A program made the translations under genes and the position numbers. A DNA stretch of 64,000 nt from a virus. Under the pieces are notes generated by a model. It saw nothing but the letters and a program-made list of their open reading frames with translations, was not told where the DNA came from and searched no databases. The stretch spans positions 1-64,000 of IMG/VR virus record IMGVR_UViG_3300048574_000462. One strand, 5' to 3'. Positions 3,352 through 13,386 of the stretch are shown here, piece after piece. The first letter of the stretch is position 1. The number at the start of each line of letters is the position of its first letter.

Positions 3352-5271
3352 ATGAGTTACCAAACGGAAACCGACCTCAAGCGGATTGAAGATTATCTTC
3401 AAGGCGCCGGCATCGTCGCCTTCGACTTCGAAACATCGCCGCTGCTGCAATACCGGGCGGACAGCCGCGCCTCCCTGGACGCACACCGCGCCTGCATCGT
3501 CGGCGTCAGCCTGTCGGTGGTGCCGGGCAGCGCCATCTACGTGCCGCTCCAGCACCTGGGCGGCGGCAATGCCGACCCGGAGCAGGTGATCCCCTTCCTG
3601 CGGGACGCGCTCTGGACGAATCCCAACGTCATCAAGGTGGCGCACAACCTGTCCTTCGAGAGCATGTTCCTGTACGCGCTCGGCATCGTCCTCCAGCCGC
3701 CGTGCTATGACACCATTGCCGCCGCGCAGATGACGCTCAAGAGCACGTTCGAGTTTCGCGGTCTTTCCGACAGCGGTCTGAAAACCCTGGTGCCGGAATT
3801 GTTGGGCGAGACGCTGCCCACCTTCGAGGATGTGACCGAGGGCCGGTTCTTCGACGAGCTGGATTCCCACGACCCTGAAACCGTGCACTACGCCTGCGCC
3901 GACGCGGACTACGCCCTCCGGCTGTACCACCGGTTCAACCAGTGGTTCGATGCCTTCCTGCCCAAGCACCGCTTCATCGTGGAACAGGCGGAATCCCCCA
4001 CGGCGGTCTACTGCGGCCTGATGAAGTACAATGGCCTGCTGATGGACGAAGAAGCCATGATCCGCAAGCAGGGTGAATGCGCGGCCCGGCTGATCGTCTT
4101 GCAGGGCAAAATCCGCAGCATGATCGGCGACGTGGACATCGGCGCGAACGCCGGAACTCAGGCGTTCAAGGACTACCTGTACAAGAACCTCGGCCTGCCG
4201 GTCCTCAAGACCACGGCGAAGAACGCCGAGGCCGCCGACGATCAGGTGATGGTGATGCTTGCGGAATGGTGCACGGAGCACCGGCCGGAGTTTGCGCCAC
4301 TGTTCGAGCTGGTGCAGGAGTACCGGCGCTGGTCGAAGCTGAAAACGACCTACATCGACGGATATCTGCGCTTCGTAAACCCGGCGACCGGGCGCATTCA
4401 TCCAGACCTCATGCCGTTGGCCACCGAGACGGGACGCTTCGCCGGACGGAACCCCAACATGCAAAACTGCCCACGCAAGACCAACGATCCGGTGGGCATC
4501 CGCTCCTTCATCATCGCCCCGGAGGGCCATGTGCTGGTGTCCTGCGACTTCTCGCAGATCGAGCTGCGCGTCGGCGCCTTCTACTGCCGGGACGAAAAGA
4601 TGCTGGAGACCTACCGCACCGGCGGAGACATCCACGCGCAGACCACTTCGGTCATCTTCGGCATCCCCTTCGCCCAGGCCGTGGACAAGGGAGCGCCCGA
4701 CTACAAAGAGCACCGCACCATCGCCAAGAACTGCAATTTCGGCGTGTTCTACGGCCTGTTCGCGCGCGGCCTCCAGCGGCAGCTCAAATTCAAGGCCGGC
4801 CTGGACAATCCCCTCGAAACCTGCGAGGAGATAATCCGCAACTTGAAAACCGGCTACCCCGCGCTGTCCCGCTGGCAGGAGCAGGCGAAGAAGGCGGCAA
4901 CCATCCGCCAATACTCCCAGACCTTCCTGGGGCGGCGACGCTATCTGCCCGGCATCCGCTCCCAGGATTGGGGGAAGAAAAGCTACGCCGAGCGCTGCGC
5001 CTTGAACACCCCGATCCAGGGCACGGCCGCCGACATCCTCAAGCTGGCGCTGGGCGCCATCATCGCCGGCCTGCCGGAGCGACCGTGGCTGAAACCGCTG
5101 CTGCAGATTCACGATGAGTTGGTATTCGAGTTGCCCGCCGACCGACTCCATGAAGCGGTATCGTTCATCCGCTCACGCATGGAGGCACAGCCCTTCCTGG
5201 AATTCGACGTGCCGATCGTGGCGGAGGCCGCCTGCGGGCCGGACTTCGGGCACATGGCGGAAATGGAGTGA
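3352..5271 (+). CDS. Family A DNA polymerase with 3'-5' exonuclease
   Basis: FDFETS (ExoI), YACADAD (ExoIII), TGRF, DFSQIELR (motif A), AKNCNFGVFYG (motif B), QIHDE (motif C). Confidence 0.95.
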   Translation: MSYQTETDLKRIEDYLQGAGIVAFDFETSPLLQYRADSRASLDAHRACIVGVSLSVVPGSAIYVPLQHLGGGNADPEQVIPFLRDALWTNPNVIKVAHNLSFESMFLYALGIVLQPPCYDTIAAAQMTLKSTFEFRGLSDSGLKTLVPELLGETLPTFEDVTEGRFFDELDSHDPETVHYACADADYALRLYHRFNQWFDAFLPKHRFIVEQAESPTAVYCGLMKYNGLLMDEEAMIRKQGECAARLIVLQGKIRSMIGDVDIGANAGTQAFKDYLYKNLGLPVLKTTAKNAEAADDQVMVMLAEWCTEHRPEFAPLFELVQEYRRWSKLKTTYIDGYLRFVNPATGRIHPDLMPLATETGRFAGRNPNMQNCPRKTNDPVGIRSFIIAPEGHVLVSCDFSQIELRVGAFYCRDEKMLETYRTGGDIHAQTTSVIFGIPFAQAVDKGAPDYKEHRTIAKNCNFGVFYGLFARGLQRQLKFKAGLDNPLETCEEIIRNLKTGYPALSRWQEQAKKAATIRQYSQTFLGRRRYLPGIRSQDWGKKSYAERCALNTPIQGTAADILKLALGAIIAGLPERPWLKPLLQIHDELVFELPADRLHEAVSFIRSRMEAQPFLEFDVPIVAEAACGPDFGHMAEME

Positions 5272-5708: not shown

Positions 5709-8263
5709 GCTTCCCCCAAGAATTGACGGCGCTGCCGCAGTGGATATGCTGGCGGATGGAACCTGACCCGAAAGGCGACAAACCTCGCAAGGTGCCCTAT
5801 GATCCCAAGACCGGCCGCAAGGCGTCCTCCACCAACCCGCAGACCTGGGCGACGCTGTCCGAGGCCGAGGCCGCCCGTGGCAAATACCTGTTCACCGGCG
5901 TAGGCTTTGTGTTCACCGAAGTCTGCGGCATCGTCGGCGTTGACATCGACCACTGCCGGAGCGAAGATGGGGCGCTCAATGACACCGCCCGCGCCATTCT
6001 GGAGAAACATCCGTCCTACACGGAAATCTCGCCCTCAGGCACCGGGCTGCACATTTTCTACCGTGGCGCCATGCCGGGCAAGGGCAACAAGAACAGCGCC
6101 ACCGGCGTGGAGATGTACTCGACCGGCCGCTACTTTACCATGACCGGGCAGCATCTGGAAGGCACGCCCGAGGAAATTTCGTCGGACGCCGCCGCGCTCC
6201 TCTGGATTCATGAAGCCTTCGTTGCCAAGAAGCGCCGTGCCAGGGAACCCCGGCCCACACGGCAGACTGTCCGGCTGACCGACGAAGTGGTGTTGGAGAA
6301 GGCCCGCGCCGCCGCCAGCGGCGATGAATTCACCGACCTATGGGAGGGACGCTGGAAGGACAAGTACGGCAGCCAGTCGGAGGCCGACCTTGCGCTTTGC
6401 TGCGCGTTGGCCTTCTGGACCGGGAAGGATGCTGCGCAGATGGACAGGCTGTTCCGGCAGTCGGCGCTGCTCCGGGAAAAATGGGACAACGTCCACCATG
6501 CGGACGGCGCCACCTACGGTGCGGAAACCATCCGCCAGGCCATTGAGCGCACCGAGCAGACCTACTCGCCGGAGGGCGAGCCGGCCATCCGGGAGCAGAG
6601 CGGGCGCTACTACCGCGTGAAAGGCGAACAGGTCTACCCGATCACCAATTTTACGGTGCATCCCCTGGAGATGCTCATCGCGGACGATGAAACGCAGATG
6701 ACCTGCGACCTTGTGACGATCTACGGCGAAACCTTCCGACAGACGTTCCTGACCACCGACTTCGGTAACCTCCAGAAATTCAAGGGAGTGCTCAACAAGC
6801 GCACCATCGCGCTCTCCTACACCGGCTCCGAAGGCGACCTGGAAATTCTCAAGGGCTACCTCGCCGGGTTGGAGTGGTCGAAGAAGTACGGTGTCAAGGC
6901 GCTGGGCCTCTACGAACGCGATAAGCGCTGGATCTTCGTGGCGAGGGACGGCGCGTTCGCGGCGGGCGGCGAGATGGTGGAGGATATGATTCAGCTTGAA
7001 AAGCACGCCTCCATTGACAGCACGCTGCCGGCCAGTGCCGCCATATCACCGGAAAAGCTCGCGGAGCTTGGTCCGCTGCTGCTGGAATACAACGAACCCG
7101 CCAAGACGGTTTCCGTGCTGGCGTGGTGCGCCGGCTGCTTCCTGAAGGAGCACCTGCGGAAGGCAGGTATCAAATACCCGCACCTGTTCCTGATCGGCGA
7201 GGCGGGCAGCGGCAAATCCAATACGCTGGAGCGCGTGATTCTGCCCATCTTCGGGCGGAGCAAGGTGGTCGCCGCGCCGCAGATTACCGCGTTCACGCTG
7301 ATGAAGGATGCCGCCTCCAGCAACCTGTTCCCCCAAGCGCTGGACGAATTCAAGCCGTCCAAGATCGACAAGATGCGGTTGCAGGCGCTGTACAACCACT
7401 TCCGCGACAGCTACGACGGGCATGAGGGCGTGCGCGGCCGGGCGGATCAGTCGCAGGTCAGCTATGCGCTGCTGGCGCCGTTGGCCGTGGCCGGCGAGGA
7501 ATCCCCGGACGAGCCCGCCGTGCGCGAGCGCGGTATGGAGCTGCTTTTCAGCAAGCGCGACCTCAAGGATGTGGCGGCGCGGGCGGCGTTCCAGCGGATT
7601 GGCAACCTGCAAAGCGATCTGGTACGCCTCGGGCGCGGGCTGCTCGATACGGCGCTGACGCTGTCCACCGAGGCCGTGCGGCAATGGCACAACGAAGCGC
7701 TGGCGATCTTCAATCCCGCGCTTCCGTCCCGCGTCGTAAACAACCTCGCGTGCTGCATGGTCGGTGTCCGGCTGCTCGAAGTGCTTTGCTCCCGGTTGGG
7801 CTTGACATGGGGACGGGTGTTTCCCATCGGCATGGATGCCTGCGTCAAGCACATGGAGTACGCCGTCCGGGAGTACCTGCTCGACGGCGGCGACGCCAAT
7901 AAGAGCGTCATCGAGCAGACGCTGGAGGTTATGGACCGCATGGGCCTATCCGAGACGGAATGCAAGCTGCTGGAGAACGGCCAGATTGCCATCCACTTCA
8001 AGGCGATTTATGACCGCTATACCCAGTATCGCCGCGACCATGCCATCTACGGCGAAAGTCTGCCGTACTCGCAGTTCATAAAGCAACTGCGAAAATCGGA
8101 CCTGTTCGTTGAGAACAAGACGGTTCGCTTCGGCGATGACCCCAAGAAGGCGACCGTGCTCAACTACGCGCTCATAAAACAGCGCTGCGACGTTGACGGA
8201 TTTCTAGGACCACAGATTGAGCCGTTGGTAGGTTCCGGTGTAACTTGTAACCATGTGACTTAA
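5705..8263 (+). CDS. Primase-polymerase (NrS-1-like) fused to P-loop helicase
   Basis: GVDIDHC, EISPSGTGLH, RYFTMTG prim-pol motifs; SEADLALC helical bundle; GEAGSGKS Walker A; LDE Walker B. Confidence 0.85.
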   Translation: MSFPQELTALPQWICWRMEPDPKGDKPRKVPYDPKTGRKASSTNPQTWATLSEAEAARGKYLFTGVGFVFTEVCGIVGVDIDHCRSEDGALNDTARAILEKHPSYTEISPSGTGLHIFYRGAMPGKGNKNSATGVEMYSTGRYFTMTGQHLEGTPEEISSDAAALLWIHEAFVAKKRRAREPRPTRQTVRLTDEVVLEKARAAASGDEFTDLWEGRWKDKYGSQSEADLALCCALAFWTGKDAAQMDRLFRQSALLREKWDNVHHADGATYGAETIRQAIERTEQTYSPEGEPAIREQSGRYYRVKGEQVYPITNFTVHPLEMLIADDETQMTCDLVTIYGETFRQTFLTTDFGNLQKFKGVLNKRTIALSYTGSEGDLEILKGYLAGLEWSKKYGVKALGLYERDKRWIFVARDGAFAAGGEMVEDMIQLEKHASIDSTLPASAAISPEKLAELGPLLLEYNEPAKTVSVLAWCAGCFLKEHLRKAGIKYPHLFLIGEAGSGKSNTLERVILPIFGRSKVVAAPQITAFTLMKDAASSNLFPQALDEFKPSKIDKMRLQALYNHFRDSYDGHEGVRGRADQSQVSYALLAPLAVAGEESPDEPAVRERGMELLFSKRDLKDVAARAAFQRIGNLQSDLVRLGRGLLDTALTLSTEAVRQWHNEALAIFNPALPSRVVNNLACCMVGVRLLEVLCSRLGLTWGRVFPIGMDACVKHMEYAVREYLLDGGDANKSVIEQTLEVMDRMGLSETECKLLENGQIAIHFKAIYDRYTQYRRDHAIYGESLPYSQFIKQLRKSDLFVENKTVRFGDDPKKATVLNYALIKQRCDVDGFLGPQIEPLVGSGVTCNHVT

Positions 8264-9512: not shown

Positions 9513-9629
9513 GAAAATGCCGCGCTGACACAAAATGAGACTATCCCCCATGCGATAATGGTACCATGAGAAAATGAACCGAGGCCCTCCCGGAGCGATC
9601 CGGCGAGGGCTTCTCTTATGGAGGGACCC

Positions 9630-10007
9630 ATGCCGAGAAAGCCGCTCCGCCCATGCAGCCATCCCGGCTGCCCGGCGCTGACCGATGGACAGTATTGTCC
9701 CGAGCATCGGAAACTGGCGGCGGCCCGCTACAACCGGTACGAGCGCGACCCGGCCATCCAGAAGCTGTACGGCGGCGCGTGGCCGCGCATCCGCGCACAT
9801 TTCCTGGCGGCGCATCCCCTGTGCGCGGTATGCCAGCGGGAGGACCGGGTGACGGCAGCGGAGGAAGTCCATCACATCCTGCCCCTCTCCCAGGGCGGCA
9901 CCCACGCCGAGGATAACCTCATGGCGCTGTGCAAGGAGTGCCACTCCCGCATCACGGCCCGAGAGGGCGGGCGATGGGCGCCGGCCGGGCGCCATCGGCG
10001 GGGGTAG
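9630..10007 (+). CDS. Packaging-associated HNH endonuclease
   Basis: PCSHPGC..., HPLCAVC, VHHILPLSQGGTHAEDNLMALCKECH; directly upstream of terS. Confidence 0.92.
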   Translation: MPRKPLRPCSHPGCPALTDGQYCPEHRKLAAARYNRYERDPAIQKLYGGAWPRIRAHFLAAHPLCAVCQREDRVTAAEEVHHILPLSQGGTHAEDNLMALCKECHSRITAREGGRWAPAGRHRRG

Positions 10008-10095
10008 GGGGAGCAAAATCTTAAAATGACGTTCGGAACATAGCGGATGCGCCCCTTCGCGTGAATTTTCGCGCTTTCAAGTCGGGCATATGGCC
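10000..10095. other. Putative cos/packaging initiation region
   Basis: G-rich GGGGGTAGGGGG then AAAATC and CGCGTGAATTTTCGCG between HNH and terS, the usual cos position in HK97-like phages. Confidence 0.5.
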
Positions 10096-10117
10096 CGCGT
10101 TTTCAGGAGGTGATGGT

Positions 10118-10663
10118 ATGGCAAACGGACACGGTGGCGCGCGCGTGGGCGCCGGACAGAAGAAAAAGCCCCTCTCGGACAAGATCGCCGAAGGCAACCC
10201 CGGAAAGCGCAAACTGACGGTGCTGGATTTCACGGCGAACGCTGCCGACCTCGAAGGCCAGGCCATGCCGCAACCGCGCACCTACCTCGCCGCCAAGCAG
10301 AAGAACGGCAAGGACCTGCTGGCGATGGACATCTTCGAATCCACATGGAAGTGGTTGGACGAGCGGGGCTGCGCGAACCTCGTGCCGGCGCAGATTTTGG
10401 AGCAGTACGCAATGGCGATCTCGCGCTGGATTCAATGCGAGGAATGTATCACCGAGTTCGGCTTCCTGGCGAAACACCCGACCACCGGCAACGCCATCCC
10501 CTCGCCCTACGTGGCCATGAGCCAGAGCTTTTCCAAGCAGGCCAACAACCTGTGGTATCAAATCTATCAGGTGGTCCGGGAGAATTGCTCCATTGAGTTC
10601 AAGGGCGCGACGCCCCATGACGATATGATGGAGCGCCTGCTCTCGGCGCGCCGTGGAGGATAA
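10118..10663 (+). CDS. terS: Terminase small subunit (P27 family)
   Basis: GG.R.GAG.KKK, GNPGKR.L, G.L.KHPTTG..I.SPYV; AGGAGG RBS. Confidence 0.88.
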   Translation: MANGHGGARVGAGQKKKPLSDKIAEGNPGKRKLTVLDFTANAADLEGQAMPQPRTYLAAKQKNGKDLLAMDIFESTWKWLDERGCANLVPAQILEQYAMAISRWIQCEECITEFGFLAKHPTTGNAIPSPYVAMSQSFSKQANNLWYQIYQVVRENCSIEFKGATPHDDMMERLLSARRGG

Positions 10664-10666
10664 TTC

Positions 10667-11251
10667 ATGAACATTCAAACCCTGCCCTTGAAGGACATTC
10701 ATCCGTATGCACGCAATCCGCGCAAGAACGGCGAGGCCGTGAAGGGCGTCACGGCCAGCATCCGCGAGTTCGGTTTTCTGGTACCGCTGGTGATCGACCG
10801 GAACCATGAGATCGTGGCCGGCCACACCCGGTACAAAGCGGCGCAATCCCTGGGCATCAAGGAAGTCCCCTGCGTCATCGCCGACGAGCTGACCGAGGAT
10901 CAGATCAAAGCATTTCGACTGGCCGATAACAAAGTTGGCGAGATGGCGCAATGGGACATGGACCTGCTGCCGCTGGAATTGCAGGGGATCATGCTGCCCA
11001 TGACCGACTTCGGCTTCCAGGCGATCTCCGACGAGGACTTCTCCGACAATTTTACCCTGGACGCCGGTGAGAAGAAGCCCTTCCAGCAGATCAGCATCAC
11101 CGTCCACGACGAGCAAGCCAGCCTCATGCTGGCGGCAATCAAGTATGTGTACGACCAGCAGGCCGTGTCGGAAACCTTCGGCAACGAGAATCACAACGGA
11201 AACGGACTCTATGAGGTGGTGAGAGAGTGGGCCGCGCTAAAGAAATTGTGA
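10667..11251 (+). CDS. ParB/Srx-like N-terminal domain protein
   Basis: PYARNPR.N, SIREFGF..P.VID, AGHTR..AA, FRLADNK. Confidence 0.85.
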   Translation: MNIQTLPLKDIHPYARNPRKNGEAVKGVTASIREFGFLVPLVIDRNHEIVAGHTRYKAAQSLGIKEVPCVIADELTEDQIKAFRLADNKVGEMAQWDMDLLPLELQGIMLPMTDFGFQAISDEDFSDNFTLDAGEKKPFQQISITVHDEQASLMLAAIKYVYDQQAVSETFGNENHNGNGLYEVVREWAALKKL

Positions 11252-11973
11252 TGAAGGTGCTGCCTTCGGGTGTCGCAAACGCGTTCATCCGGACGCACCA
11301 CTATTCCGGCAAGGTCGTAAACAATTCCAAGCTCCACTTCGGCATTTTCCTCGACGGTCAACTCCATGGCGTCATGAGCTACGGCCCGTCGCTGGACAAG
11401 AGCAAGATCATCGGGCTGGTGGAGGGTACCGGATGGAATGATTTCCTGGAATTGAACCGCATGGCTCTCGATGCTGTGCTGCCCAGGAATTCCGAAAGCC
11501 GCGCCATTTCCATGAGCATCCGCCTCCTGAAAAAGCACGCGCCGCAGGTGAAATGGATCATCTCCTTCGCCGACGCCTGCTCCTGCGGTGACGGTGCGAT
11601 CTATCGGGCCAGCAATTTCGTGCTGACCGGCATCAAGGAAAACCTGAACCTCGCGGAGCTTCCCGATGGCACCCGCATCCACAAGATGACGCTGGCATCG
11701 AACCCGACCACGCCGCGCCGCGAGCTGAATGGGCTGACGTTCTTCGACGTGACGGGCGGCACCTACAATTTCAAGAAGTATCTGGACTACGTGGGCGCGA
11801 GGCCCATCCCCGGCTTCCAGCTTCGGTACATGTACTTCATTGACCCGGCCTGCCGGGAAAAACTGACCGTGCCCATCATCCCCTTCTCCAAGATCGACGA
11901 GCTGGGAGCGGGCATGTACAAAGGCGCGAAGATCACGCAGGCGGAGCGGCATTCCATCACCACGCCGGGATGA
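11227..11973 (+). CDS. mom: Mom-family adenine-modifying (methylcarbamoyl) GNAT-fold enzyme
   Basis: HHYSG, ELNRM, PRNSESRAIS, IISFAD...GDG.IYRASNF, typical of Mu Mom homologues; GTG start overlapping ParB gene. Confidence 0.8.
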   Translation: MGRAKEIVMKVLPSGVANAFIRTHHYSGKVVNNSKLHFGIFLDGQLHGVMSYGPSLDKSKIIGLVEGTGWNDFLELNRMALDAVLPRNSESRAISMSIRLLKKHAPQVKWIISFADACSCGDGAIYRASNFVLTGIKENLNLAELPDGTRIHKMTLASNPTTPRRELNGLTFFDVTGGTYNFKKYLDYVGARPIPGFQLRYMYFIDPACREKLTVPIIPFSKIDELGAGMYKGAKITQAERHSITTPG

Positions 11974-11989
11974 TCCCCGGCGTATTCAT

Positions 11990-12063
11990 GCGCGGATAGG
12001 CTAACAGCAGACCGCCCACCAACCGGTGGGAAGCGACGGGGCGGCACCGTTCTCCGCGCTCCA
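11990..12063 (+). ncRNA. tRNA-Gly-like RNA (non-canonical cloverleaf with encoded CCA)
   Basis: Acceptor GCGCGGA/TCCGCGC (7 bp), T discriminator, CCA; anticodon arm CCCAC-CAACCG-GTGGG; T arm GACGG-GGCGGCA-CCGTT; weak D arm. Confidence 0.75.
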
Positions 12064-12090
12064 TTTTCAGTTTCAAGAACAGGAGTAACC

Positions 12091-13386
12091 ATGAACATTC
12101 AGAAGATTCCCGCCGCGCGGCTCAATCCCGCCGCATACAACCCGCGCAAGGACCTGAAACCCGGCGACAAGGAGTACGAAAAGCTCAAGCGCTCCATCGC
12201 CGAGTTCGGGTATGTCGAGCCTGTCATCTGGAACGCCCAGACGGGCAATGTGGTCGGCGGCCATCAGCGGCTCAAGGTGCTGCTGGATCTCGGGCATACG
12301 GAAATCGACTGCGTGGTGGTCGATCTCGATCCCCAGCGCGAGAAGGCGCTGAACGTCGCCCTCAACAAAATCCAGGGCGATTGGGACGAGGGGAAATTGG
12401 CCTCCCTCATGGCCGACTTCGATGCCGAGGCGTTCGACGTATCGCTGACCGGCTTCGACGCTGACGAGGTAGACGCGCTGCTGAACAAATTCTACTCCAA
12501 GGAAGCCGTGGAGGATGATTTCGACGCCGACGAGGCAAAGAAGGACATCGAGGCATCGGGTGGCGCGGCATCGCAGGCCGGGGACCTCTGGCGGATGGGC
12601 GATCATCTGCTCCTGTGCGGCGATTCGACCGACCCGGAGAGCTACGAACGGCTCATGGGCGCCGAGCGCGCACAATGCGCGATCACCTCGCCGGCCATCG
12701 ATCCCAAGGCATACGCCAGGGACGGCATCGACCCTTGGCTGGATCGCATGGGCACGGTCGTTAAACTCTTGACCCGGTTCGCGGACATCATCTGCTGGCA
12801 GACCGCCGACCTCATAAAGACCGGGAGCCAATTCATTGAGCCGACCGGTTTCCACTCCGTTCGGCTGTTCGCGGACGCGAACTACCGGCCGCTGTGGATT
12901 CGCGTCTGGAAGATGGCCGGAGGCGCGCCGGGCGCCGGTCCGCTGCAGCTCGCGTCCACGAAGCCTGCGCCGCAATTCGATACCGTGTTGGCGTTCGCTG
13001 GACAAGAGATAGAAGCCTACAACGATCAGGAGTATTCCTGGGTATCGGCCTTTGCCACCCATGCCTTCCAATTCGTGCGCCGGCTCACCCGCGACGAGCG
13101 GCGCAAATGGGGCTATGCGGGCGTGTGGGAGATTGCCGCCGTGCGGCGCGATAAGGACAGCGAGCCGCAAATCCCGGTGGAGTTGCCGTGGCGATGCCTC
13201 AAAATGCACTCCGACGTGAACGGCGTGATCCTGGACCCCTTTGCGGGCCTGGGCACGACGATCATCGCCGCCGAGCAGAGTGGCCGCGTCTGCCGCGCCA
13301 TTGAAAATGATCCTCTCCGCTGCGAGTTGATCGTGCGGCGCTGGGAGCAGTTCACCGGCAAGGAAGCCGAGCGGGTTGAAAGATAA
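12091..13386 (+). CDS. ParB-domain plus N6/N4 DNA methyltransferase-like protein with degenerate catalytic motif
   Basis: YNPRKDL, GGHQRLKVL ParB; HLLLCGDST; TSPAI in place of (D/S)PPY; DPFAGLGTT SAM-binding motif. Confidence 0.8.
   Translation: MNIQKIPAARLNPAAYNPRKDLKPGDKEYEKLKRSIAEFGYVEPVIWNAQTGNVVGGHQRLKVLLDLGHTEIDCVVVDLDPQREKALNVALNKIQGDWDEGKLASLMADFDAEAFDVSLTGFDADEVDALLNKFYSKEAVEDDFDADEAKKDIEASGGAASQAGDLWRMGDHLLLCGDSTDPESYERLMGAERAQCAITSPAIDPKAYARDGIDPWLDRMGTVVKLLTRFADIICWQTADLIKTGSQFIEPTGFHSVRLFADANYRPLWIRVWKMAGGAPGAGPLQLASTKPAPQFDTVLAFAGQEIEAYNDQEYSWVSAFATHAFQFVRRLTRDERRKWGYAGVWEIAAVRRDKDSEPQIPVELPWRCLKMHSDVNGVILDPFAGLGTTIIAAEQSGRVCRAIENDPLRCELIVRRWEQFTGKEAERVER

Follow-up and report, generated by a model that had tools for sequence, protein, structure and literature searches.

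For decades, the DNA modification made by Mom stood in textbooks as an unexplained one. That a glycyl-tRNA is the donor was not published until 2026 (PMC13219725): the Mom protein of phage Mu takes the glycine of Gly-tRNAGly and attaches it to adenine N6 in double-stranded DNA, and the product then rearranges to a carbamoylmethyl adduct (Silva et al., Nat Commun 2026, PMC13219725; preprint 10.1101/2023.03.24.534169). All three E. coli tRNA-Gly isoacceptors serve Mu Mom, but Gly-tRNAAla does not (PMC13219725), so Mom reads the tRNA as well as the amino acid, probably at the acceptor end. Glycyl transfer has been established for Mu Mom and two metagenomic homologues only (PMC13219725). Here, we analyse a mom-family gene, and the 74-nt tRNA-Gly-like RNA gene that follows it, in a stretch of 64,000 nt (the window) of the 96.6-kb IMG/VR provirus IMGVR_UViG_3300048574_000462. 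The RNA accompanies mom in most of the related loci that we examined, and it probably serves as a dedicated carrier of glycine for Mom. A preliminary description of this DNA had tentatively named Gly-tRNA as the donor used by Mom, which the published work bears out for Mu Mom (PMC13219725).

Two further systems are close to this locus. The non-proteogenic tRNAGly species NP1-NP3 of Staphylococcus aureus and S. epidermidis are donors for the transferases FmhB, FemA and FemB; they bind EF-Tu poorly, and their T loop has TGC or TGT in place of TTC (PMC7826273). In the ssrA islands of Dehalococcoides, a conserved 76-bp tRNA-Gly-like 'pseudo-tRNA' is embedded in a mom homologue, within its first 150 bp; a ParB gene is adjacent, and no function was proposed (McMurdie et al., BMC Genomics 2011, PMC3146451). 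The report on Mu Mom mentions no tRNA-like gene beside mom (PMC13219725), and in our literature searches we came across no paper connecting such RNAs with the donor requirement of Mom.

The protein-coding part of the locus is a single open reading frame (ORF):

11227-11973, + strand: Mom-family gene of 248 aa with a GTG start (Pfam PF25680, GNAT-fold DNA adenine modifier)

On the evidence of its sequence, this ORF belongs to the Mom family, as had been supposed. It matches PF25680 with an E-value of 9.4e-51 and 172.8 bits (cut-off 27.1) over profile positions 2-202 of 202, aligns with the sequence of the Mu Mom structure (8bv8_A, E 1.4e-25), and keeps ELNRM and PRNSESRA, the motifs of the catalytic Arg and Ser, which are invariant in our Mom alignment (A2). 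Homologues of the window Mom number in thousands. Its chemistry is presumed to be that of Mu Mom, in which a charged RNA of tRNA type gives up its glycyl group to adenine N6. The two loci differ in other respects. Mu has no tRNA-like gene by mom, uses any host tRNA-Gly isoacceptor and has Com control, whereas the window has no com, its module is flanked by ParB-domain genes, and a dedicated RNA gene follows mom.

The mom stop codon (TGA, 11971-11973) is followed by a 16-nt spacer and then by the RNA element, which consists of the following parts:

11990-12063, + strand: tRNA-Gly-like RNA gene of 74 nt, a candidate glycyl carrier (covariance model R1, 96.2 bits, E 3e-18)
11990-11996, + strand: 5' strand of the acceptor stem, GCGCGGA, in which G1, C2 and G3 are the fixed part
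11999-12013, + strand: D arm, with stem GGCT/GACC containing a C-A mismatch and loop AACAGCA, with A18 G19 instead of G18 G19
12015-12030, + strand: anticodon-like arm, with stem CCCAC/GTGGG and the 6-nt loop CAACCG (12020-12025), in which CC is kept
12035-12051, + strand: T arm, with stem GACGG/CCGTT (one G-U pair) and loop GGCGGCA (G54 G55 C56 ... G58)
12052, + strand: extra C that separates the T stem from the 3' strand of the acceptor stem
12053-12063, + strand: 3' strand of the acceptor stem, TCCGCGC, then U73 (12060) and an encoded CCA (12061-12063)

The element forms a four-arm cloverleaf with a 7-bp acceptor stem and carries T8-A9. All details that the preliminary description had given of it (stems, loops, T8-A9, U73-CCA, the extra C and the 16-nt spacer) were verified on the letters. 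The cloverleaf is the minimum-free-energy fold of 11990-12063 (-31.6 kcal/mol); its z-score against shuffled sequences is only -1.36, which alone is not significant in GC-rich DNA. As had been expected, standard tRNA finders miss the RNA: ARAGORN reported zero tRNA genes across the window, and Rfam, including its tRNA model RF00005, gave no match at the site even at E-values up to 10. A minus-strand ORF that covers the element (11787-12098) has no Pfam match and was treated as spurious. It is the comparison with other loci, by linkage and covariation, that marks the RNA as more than a chance fold.

We examined 118 loci encoding relatives of the window Mom, 38 from genomes and 80 from IMG/VR; each retrieval took the 80 best loci, with more remote Mom clades outside the sample. 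Covariance model R1 was built from 28 distinct RNA copies, and its E-values are rough owing to a short calibration. In the whole provirus, R1 finds a single match, at 11990-12063. Among the related mom loci, the RNA was found in 101 of 118, and on the mom strand in 100. Its start usually lies ~20-25 nt past the end of the Mom match, or ~1.2 kb upstream in 13 loci, and five of the 17 loci without RNA end just after mom. In a distant clade, with Moms 54-77% identical to a proteobacterial relative, 42 of 50 loci have the RNA. Here it always abuts or overlaps the 3' end of mom, and all but one copy are on the mom strand.

The linkage also holds in the reverse direction. In five whole genomes (25 Mb), R1 gave seven matches, of which the six strong ones all adjoin mom; the seventh is far weaker and is a host tRNA-Gly(CCC). 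Furthermore, the exact motif of the RNA's 5' half occurs in 29 of 2.9 million viral contigs, and mom lies 5' of it on the same strand in 29/29, at 21-964 nt. The search for a similar structure beside other mom homologues, on which the original proposal had been made to depend, was strongly positive in both directions. A broader model (R2) was dropped as a linkage test because it is too general, matching host tRNA-Gly(UCC) genes in 150 of 151 genomes. The hosts of the mom-RNA loci span Bacillota (including Clostridia), Pseudomonadota and Planctomycetota, and the RNA follows mom irrespective of the next gene, be it a methylase, terS or others.

One of these loci belongs to a cultured phage. Psychrobacter phage vB_PmaS_Y8A (OQ059336.1; locus L123) has the order ParB, Mom, two tandem RNAs without D arm, and terS. 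The two RNAs, at L123:3662-3729 and 3734-3802 (~7786-7926 in the record), lie within the 166-nt gap between Mom and terS. Both are unannotated in the record, where the Mom gene is annotated as hypothetical.

The arrangement of genes and RNA copies varied among the loci. Two tandem Mom paralogues followed by one RNA occur in many relatives (L009, L013-L016, L019-L031 and many IMG/VR loci; G001:C1:5523625-5525189). A tandem-Mom sub-clade with ~78% identity to the window Mom (L029, L077, L078, L082, L084) had no RNA detected within 2-3 kb, and the whole genome of Anaerotaenia torta DSM 100431 (L029 / G003:C2:532851-536200) gave zero R1 matches. Two tandem RNAs were found in L025, L026, L031 and L219, and the second copies of L025 and L031 are without the CC in the loop (TGATCG and CGATTG, respectively). 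In L033:3711-3784 (-) and L199:2736-2807 (-), the RNA abuts the 3' end of mom on the opposite strand, in convergent orientation, so co-transcription with mom is not universal. Locus L050:3619-3685 holds a decayed copy 208 nt past mom, in which the 5' half is intact and the T arm and the 3' acceptor strand are gone.

Covariation supports all four helices. In an alignment of 76 distinct sequences (A3), 94% of the cells are in standard pairs, versus 42-52% when the 3' partners are slid. Two-sided changes were found in 15 of the 21 base pairs (165 cells), and none of 500 shuffles reached these values. For the first 28 sequences, a separate alignment made with MAFFT showed 96% paired cells versus 45-55%, with two-sided change in five pairs. 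All five pairs of the anticodon-like stem covary in the 76 sequences. In the acceptor stem, for which a covariance-model check had been recommended, pairs 4-7 covary, with three to five pair types each, and G1-C72 and C2-G71 are fixed in 76/76. Identity between loci is 83-90% within the RNA and ~33% over the 30 nt 3' of CCA, with a sharp boundary of conservation at CCA. Only this downstream drop was used; the upstream figures are unusable because the spacer varies in length and the comparison was ungapped. An alternative register of the T arm in L007 (GGAG/CTCC) was dropped, since it is not conserved in L008.

The family ranges from near-standard tRNAs to the deformed type of the window. ARAGORN calls tRNA-Gly(tcc) for the relatives L093, L096, L098, L106 and L108; further relatives it reports as tRNA-??? 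with an anticodon of 2 or 4 nt, and the remainder it does not detect. With the Rfam tRNA model RF00005, both copies of L025 pass, as do L096 and L108, whereas the window type does not. When R2 was run on the 151 bacterial genomes, the next-best matches were host tRNA-Gly(UCC) genes, at 60-72 bits, and all six host matches inspected were called tRNA-Gly(tcc) by ARAGORN. Side by side with host tRNA-Gly(UCC), the mom-linked RNA has the same layout and differs at four points: its three loops (anticodon, D and T) and the extra C. The calls of relatives as tRNA-Gly(tcc) and the identity of the nearest cellular RNA together indicate that the RNA is a descendant of tRNA-Gly(UCC). We regard it as near certain that the RNA is real, that it descends from a glycine tRNA and that it is linked to mom.

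The determinants of glycyl-tRNA synthetase (GlyRS) include G1-C72, C2-G71, U73, C35 and C36 (PMC7826273). The window RNA carries G1-C72, C2-G71, G3-C70 and U73, in keeping with the glycine identity set first ascribed to it. This set is fixed or nearly so throughout the family, while the rest of the acceptor stem covaries: besides the two invariant pairs, G3-C70 is found in 67 of the 76 sequences (G-U in eight), the discriminator is T in all but one of 75 sequences (L005, with A), CC is present in the anticodon-like loop in 72/75, and the tail is TCCA in 57/75. The RNAs of the distant clade, 37 further distinct sequences, start with GCG in 37/37 and end with CGC-U in 32. The gene glyQ is missing from four host genomes of related prophages, so these hosts have the single-chain, alpha2-type GlyRS, as in S. 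aureus.

One subgroup (L089-L098, L183, L190, L193, L221, L224, L231) has G3-U70 in its acceptor stem, e.g. GCGGCGG/TCGCTGC followed by U73-CCA in L096:2744-2818. G3-U70 is the identity pair of alanyl-tRNA synthetase, and to judge from this pair the RNAs of the subgroup might accept alanine, either alone or in addition to glycine.

The features needed for decoding are changed or lost. Three lengths of the anticodon-like loop occur, 6 nt (41 sequences), 7 nt (15) and 8 nt (19), and A mostly takes the place of U33. The loop of the window RNA, CAACCG, has 6 nt, with A before NCC and no U33, and so departs from the canonical 7-nt U33 loop. Decoding tRNAs are not known to accept such loops, and a loop length of 6, 7 or 8 nt is predicted to exclude codon reading by the RNA.

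The elbow appears to be remodelled rather than lost. In place of the canonical G18 G19 and T54-Psi55-C56, the window RNA has A18 G19 and G54 G55 C56. Position 18 of the D loop and position 55 of the T loop agree in 62 of 63 sequences, 30 with G:U and 32 with A:G, and a single sequence is discordant; an A at position 18 always goes with a G at position 55. When a tree is made from the remaining columns, positions 18 and 55 switch jointly on it about eight times, a rough count since the tree rests on ~70 nt. G19 and C56 are kept throughout the family, with the 19:56 pair retained in the window, and the 54:58 pair is either T:A or G:G. The joint switching and the retained G19 and C56 argue for an L-shaped elbow that is kept with an altered contact. 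The extra C at the junction of T stem and acceptor stem occurs in ~60 of 75 distinct sequences, and host tRNA-Gly does not have it. The distant clade keeps it as CCGAC-C and has a conserved G-A mismatch in the T stem. That the encoded CCA compensates for a non-standard elbow was considered and dropped: the trend among close relatives is broken by L099, L034, L036 and others.

These properties place the RNA close to, but outside, the systems introduced above. With NP1-NP3 it shares derivation from tRNA-Gly(UCC), retained GlyRS identity marks and the loss of G18/G19; the loss of features for EF-Tu and the ribosome, and the supply of glycine to a transferase outside translation, would be shared as well. 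The staphylococcal species had been cited as lacking TTC, which agrees with their TGC or TGT (PMC7826273), and the mom-linked family has the same change of U55 to G: the window RNA has lost both U55 and the GG of the D loop, with GGC in the T loop (TGC in relatives) and AG in the D loop. However, NP1-NP3 are chromosomal, have an anticodon loop of normal length and serve cell-wall synthesis, whereas the mom-linked RNA is phage-encoded, is tied to the gene of an enzyme, combines a loop of 6-8 nt with an extra C, and would have DNA as its target. It is an analogue rather than a member of the staphylococcus-restricted lineage, because it is borne by phages and prophages of Clostridia, Proteobacteria and Planctomycetes. 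The Dehalococcoides islands, compared by description, likewise have a tRNA-Gly-like locus joined to mom and a ParB neighbour, and the RNA of the distant clade similarly overlaps the mom frame; the difference is that the RNA lies inside mom there and 16 nt past the mom stop in the window. Like an ordinary phage tRNA, the RNA is a tRNA-derived phage gene that is probably cut by RNase P. Unlike one, it has no usable anticodon loop, has non-standard T and D loops, and is tied to one enzyme gene instead of a tRNA cluster.

Around mom and the RNA, the packaging region has the following features:

9618-10007: HNH gene
10061-10663: small terminase gene
10667-11251, + strand: ParB_N gene directly 5' of mom, its 3' end overlapping the mom start (Pfam ParB_N, E 3.6e-12)
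11962-11983, + strand: GC-rich hairpin ACGCCGGG/CCCGGCGT 6 nt before G1 of the RNA, its loop containing the mom stop codon (-16.7 kcal/mol)
12091-13386, + strand: ParB_N-N6/N4 DNA methylase fusion gene (Pfam N6_N4_Mtase, E 7e-13; ParB_N, E 5e-5, below its cut-off)

The gene order is therefore HNH, small terminase, ParB_N, Mom, RNA and ParB_N-DNA methylase fusion. The AGGAG ribosome-binding site of the fusion gene lies 27 nt 3' of the RNA, which places the RNA within an operon-like row of genes. The order ParB-Mom also occurs in Psychrobacter phage Y8A and in the Dehalococcoides islands (PMC3146451).

Most Clostridia-type loci have an equivalent of the hairpin at the mom stop codon, located 5-9 nt before G1 and with compensating changes in its stem; a T run is found often, not always. 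The hairpin may protect the mom message after a cut, or lower read-through. We do not call it a terminator: a scan with consensus promoters and terminators around the RNA gave no terminator call at the hairpin, and the hairpin is conserved but the T run is not consistent. The acceptor stem with the TTTT after CCA was rejected as a terminator, because the bases past CCA vary (AAAA, TTTT, ATTC and others). A U at position -1 before G1 was found in 68/75 sequences, which fits the preference of bacterial RNase P.

From this evidence, the following course of events is proposed. The RNA would be transcribed with or just after mom and cut at G1 by RNase P, which the U at -1 fits, with its CCA already encoded. 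The single-chain (alpha2-type) GlyRS of the host would then charge it with glycine, which should be possible because the RNA keeps G1-C72, C2-G71, G3-C70, U73 and the CC in the loop. Mom would transfer the glycyl group from the RNA to N6 of adenine in the double-stranded phage DNA, and the adduct would rearrange to N6-carbamoylmethyl-adenine, blocking restriction enzymes as in phage Mu. With its 6-nt loop and no U33, the RNA would be unable to read codons, while the altered T loop, T stem and extra C would probably bar it from EF-Tu and the ribosome. A weak affinity for EF-Tu-GTP, and for ribosomes, is also suggested by the loop length, the extra C and the T-stem mismatches of relatives. The glycine supply of Mom would thus be spared competition with translation, and it would travel with the gene between hosts. 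We assign a probability of about 0.7 to the reading that the RNA is such a dedicated, GlyRS-charged, non-translating glycyl carrier for Mom; the steps that we infer here are that the RNA is expressed, processed and charged, that Mom uses it and that it stays out of translation.

Several observations weigh against this reading. Mu Mom works with host tRNA, so that the RNA is not needed by the Mom family as a whole, and no such RNA was found with the Moms of phage Mu, Pseudomonas phage JD024 and Aeromonas phage pAEv1818, which makes it a feature of a ParB-linked Mom clade and not of all Moms. Even among close mom loci, ~10-15% are without RNA within 2-3 kb. Within a 6-nt loop, the geometry of C35/C36 differs from that of a normal anticodon. 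The scan around the RNA gave no promoter-like site, and the hairpin at the stop codon could halt transcription before the RNA. Finally, the loci were thinned by sequence identity alone and many rows are close kin, and the 76-sequence alignment was fitted to the model, which favours structure.

Other roles for the RNA can be envisaged. It could be no more than a processing or stability signal that is never charged, either an RNase P site that parts mom from the ParB-methylase message or a protection of the message end. Punctuation of transcripts by tRNA-like elements is known from organelles, and the U at -1 in 68/75 sequences and the place of the RNA within a row of genes, preceded by a hairpin and followed at 27 nt by a ribosome-binding site, would suit this role. 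Yet a cut site needs the acceptor and T arms only, which leaves unexplained the fixed G1-C72, C2-G71, G3-C70, U73 and loop CC, the encoded CCA in 57/75 sequences, and the copies that occupy the other strand or lie 1.2 kb upstream of mom. That the RNA follows mom whatever the next gene (methylase, terS or others) also speaks against a signal serving the ParB-methylase message, and we consider this explanation unlikely. An improbable option, too, is a decoy or regulator that, charged or not, would bind something else than the active site of Mom as a substrate; it could soak up a toxin or nuclease that targets tRNA-Gly, or hold a potentially toxic Mom inactive until late infection. Phage tRNAs can counter host defences that cut tRNA, and GNAT toxins target Gly-tRNA; toxins of the latter type, acting on charged tRNA, are mentioned in the work on Mu Mom (PMC13219725). 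The loss of decoding features with retention of the tRNA-Gly marks would agree with a decoy, but a general anti-defence role does not need linkage to mom in both directions (29/29 contigs and all six strong matches in five genomes), and anticodon nucleases read normal anticodon loops, whereas the loop length varies here.

The nature of the cargo and of the RNA itself bears on the remaining explanations. The RNA might carry another amino acid for a Mom paralogue with different chemistry, as the G3-U70 pair of one subgroup and the two Mom paralogues of many loci would allow. This is very improbable for the window, where the RNA has the glycine set of G3-C70, U73 and CC; moreover, the nearest cellular relatives are tRNA-Gly(UCC) and Mu Mom uses glycine (PMC13219725). 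The near-canonical relatives that are called tRNA-Gly(tcc) could point to an ordinary phage tRNA-Gly for translation, or to a functionless pseudo-tRNA. Phages often integrate into tRNA genes, and such a relic could also be the remnant of an integration site. However, a loop of 6 nt in the window and 6-8 nt across the family, and the absence of a call for the window RNA by ARAGORN and Rfam, do not fit a translating tRNA, and compensatory changes in 15/21 pairs together with a co-varying tertiary pair are not expected of a relic. Nor does its position fit: the RNA lies in the packaging module instead of at a prophage end, and is the single such match in the provirus. We hold a translating tRNA or a relic to be extremely unlikely.

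A broader version of the carrier reading is that this Mom clade constitutes a portable two-gene system of protein plus RNA, in which the RNA has co-evolved with Mom as its obligatory or strongly preferred carrier, can be charged by any host GlyRS and is invisible to EF-Tu and the ribosome. The chances of this version seem to us about even. If it is true, DNA hypermodification would be independent of, and insulated from, the tRNA pool of host translation. If many Moms bring their own non-decoding glycine carrier, this would be the first virus-encoded dedicated aminoacyl-carrier RNA for DNA modification, and enzyme plus RNA would form a compact cassette that could be moved between hosts; a class of prophage loci that are unannotated or termed 'pseudo-tRNA' would be explained as well. 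In the broader version, changes in the identity nucleotides of the RNA, such as those of the G3-U70 subgroup, would offer phages a route to diversify the DNA adduct. Each step of the mechanism is directly testable, and the module is present in a cultured phage, Psychrobacter phage vB_PmaS_Y8A.

The phages of the G3-U70 subgroup also carry extra tRNA genes 1-2 kb 5' of mom (L090:678-749, L093:198-269, L098:973-1045; L096:1083-1159). ARAGORN calls these genes tRNA-Arg(ccg) and tRNA-Ile(aat), and the Arg-like acceptor stem is GCAGACG with A73.

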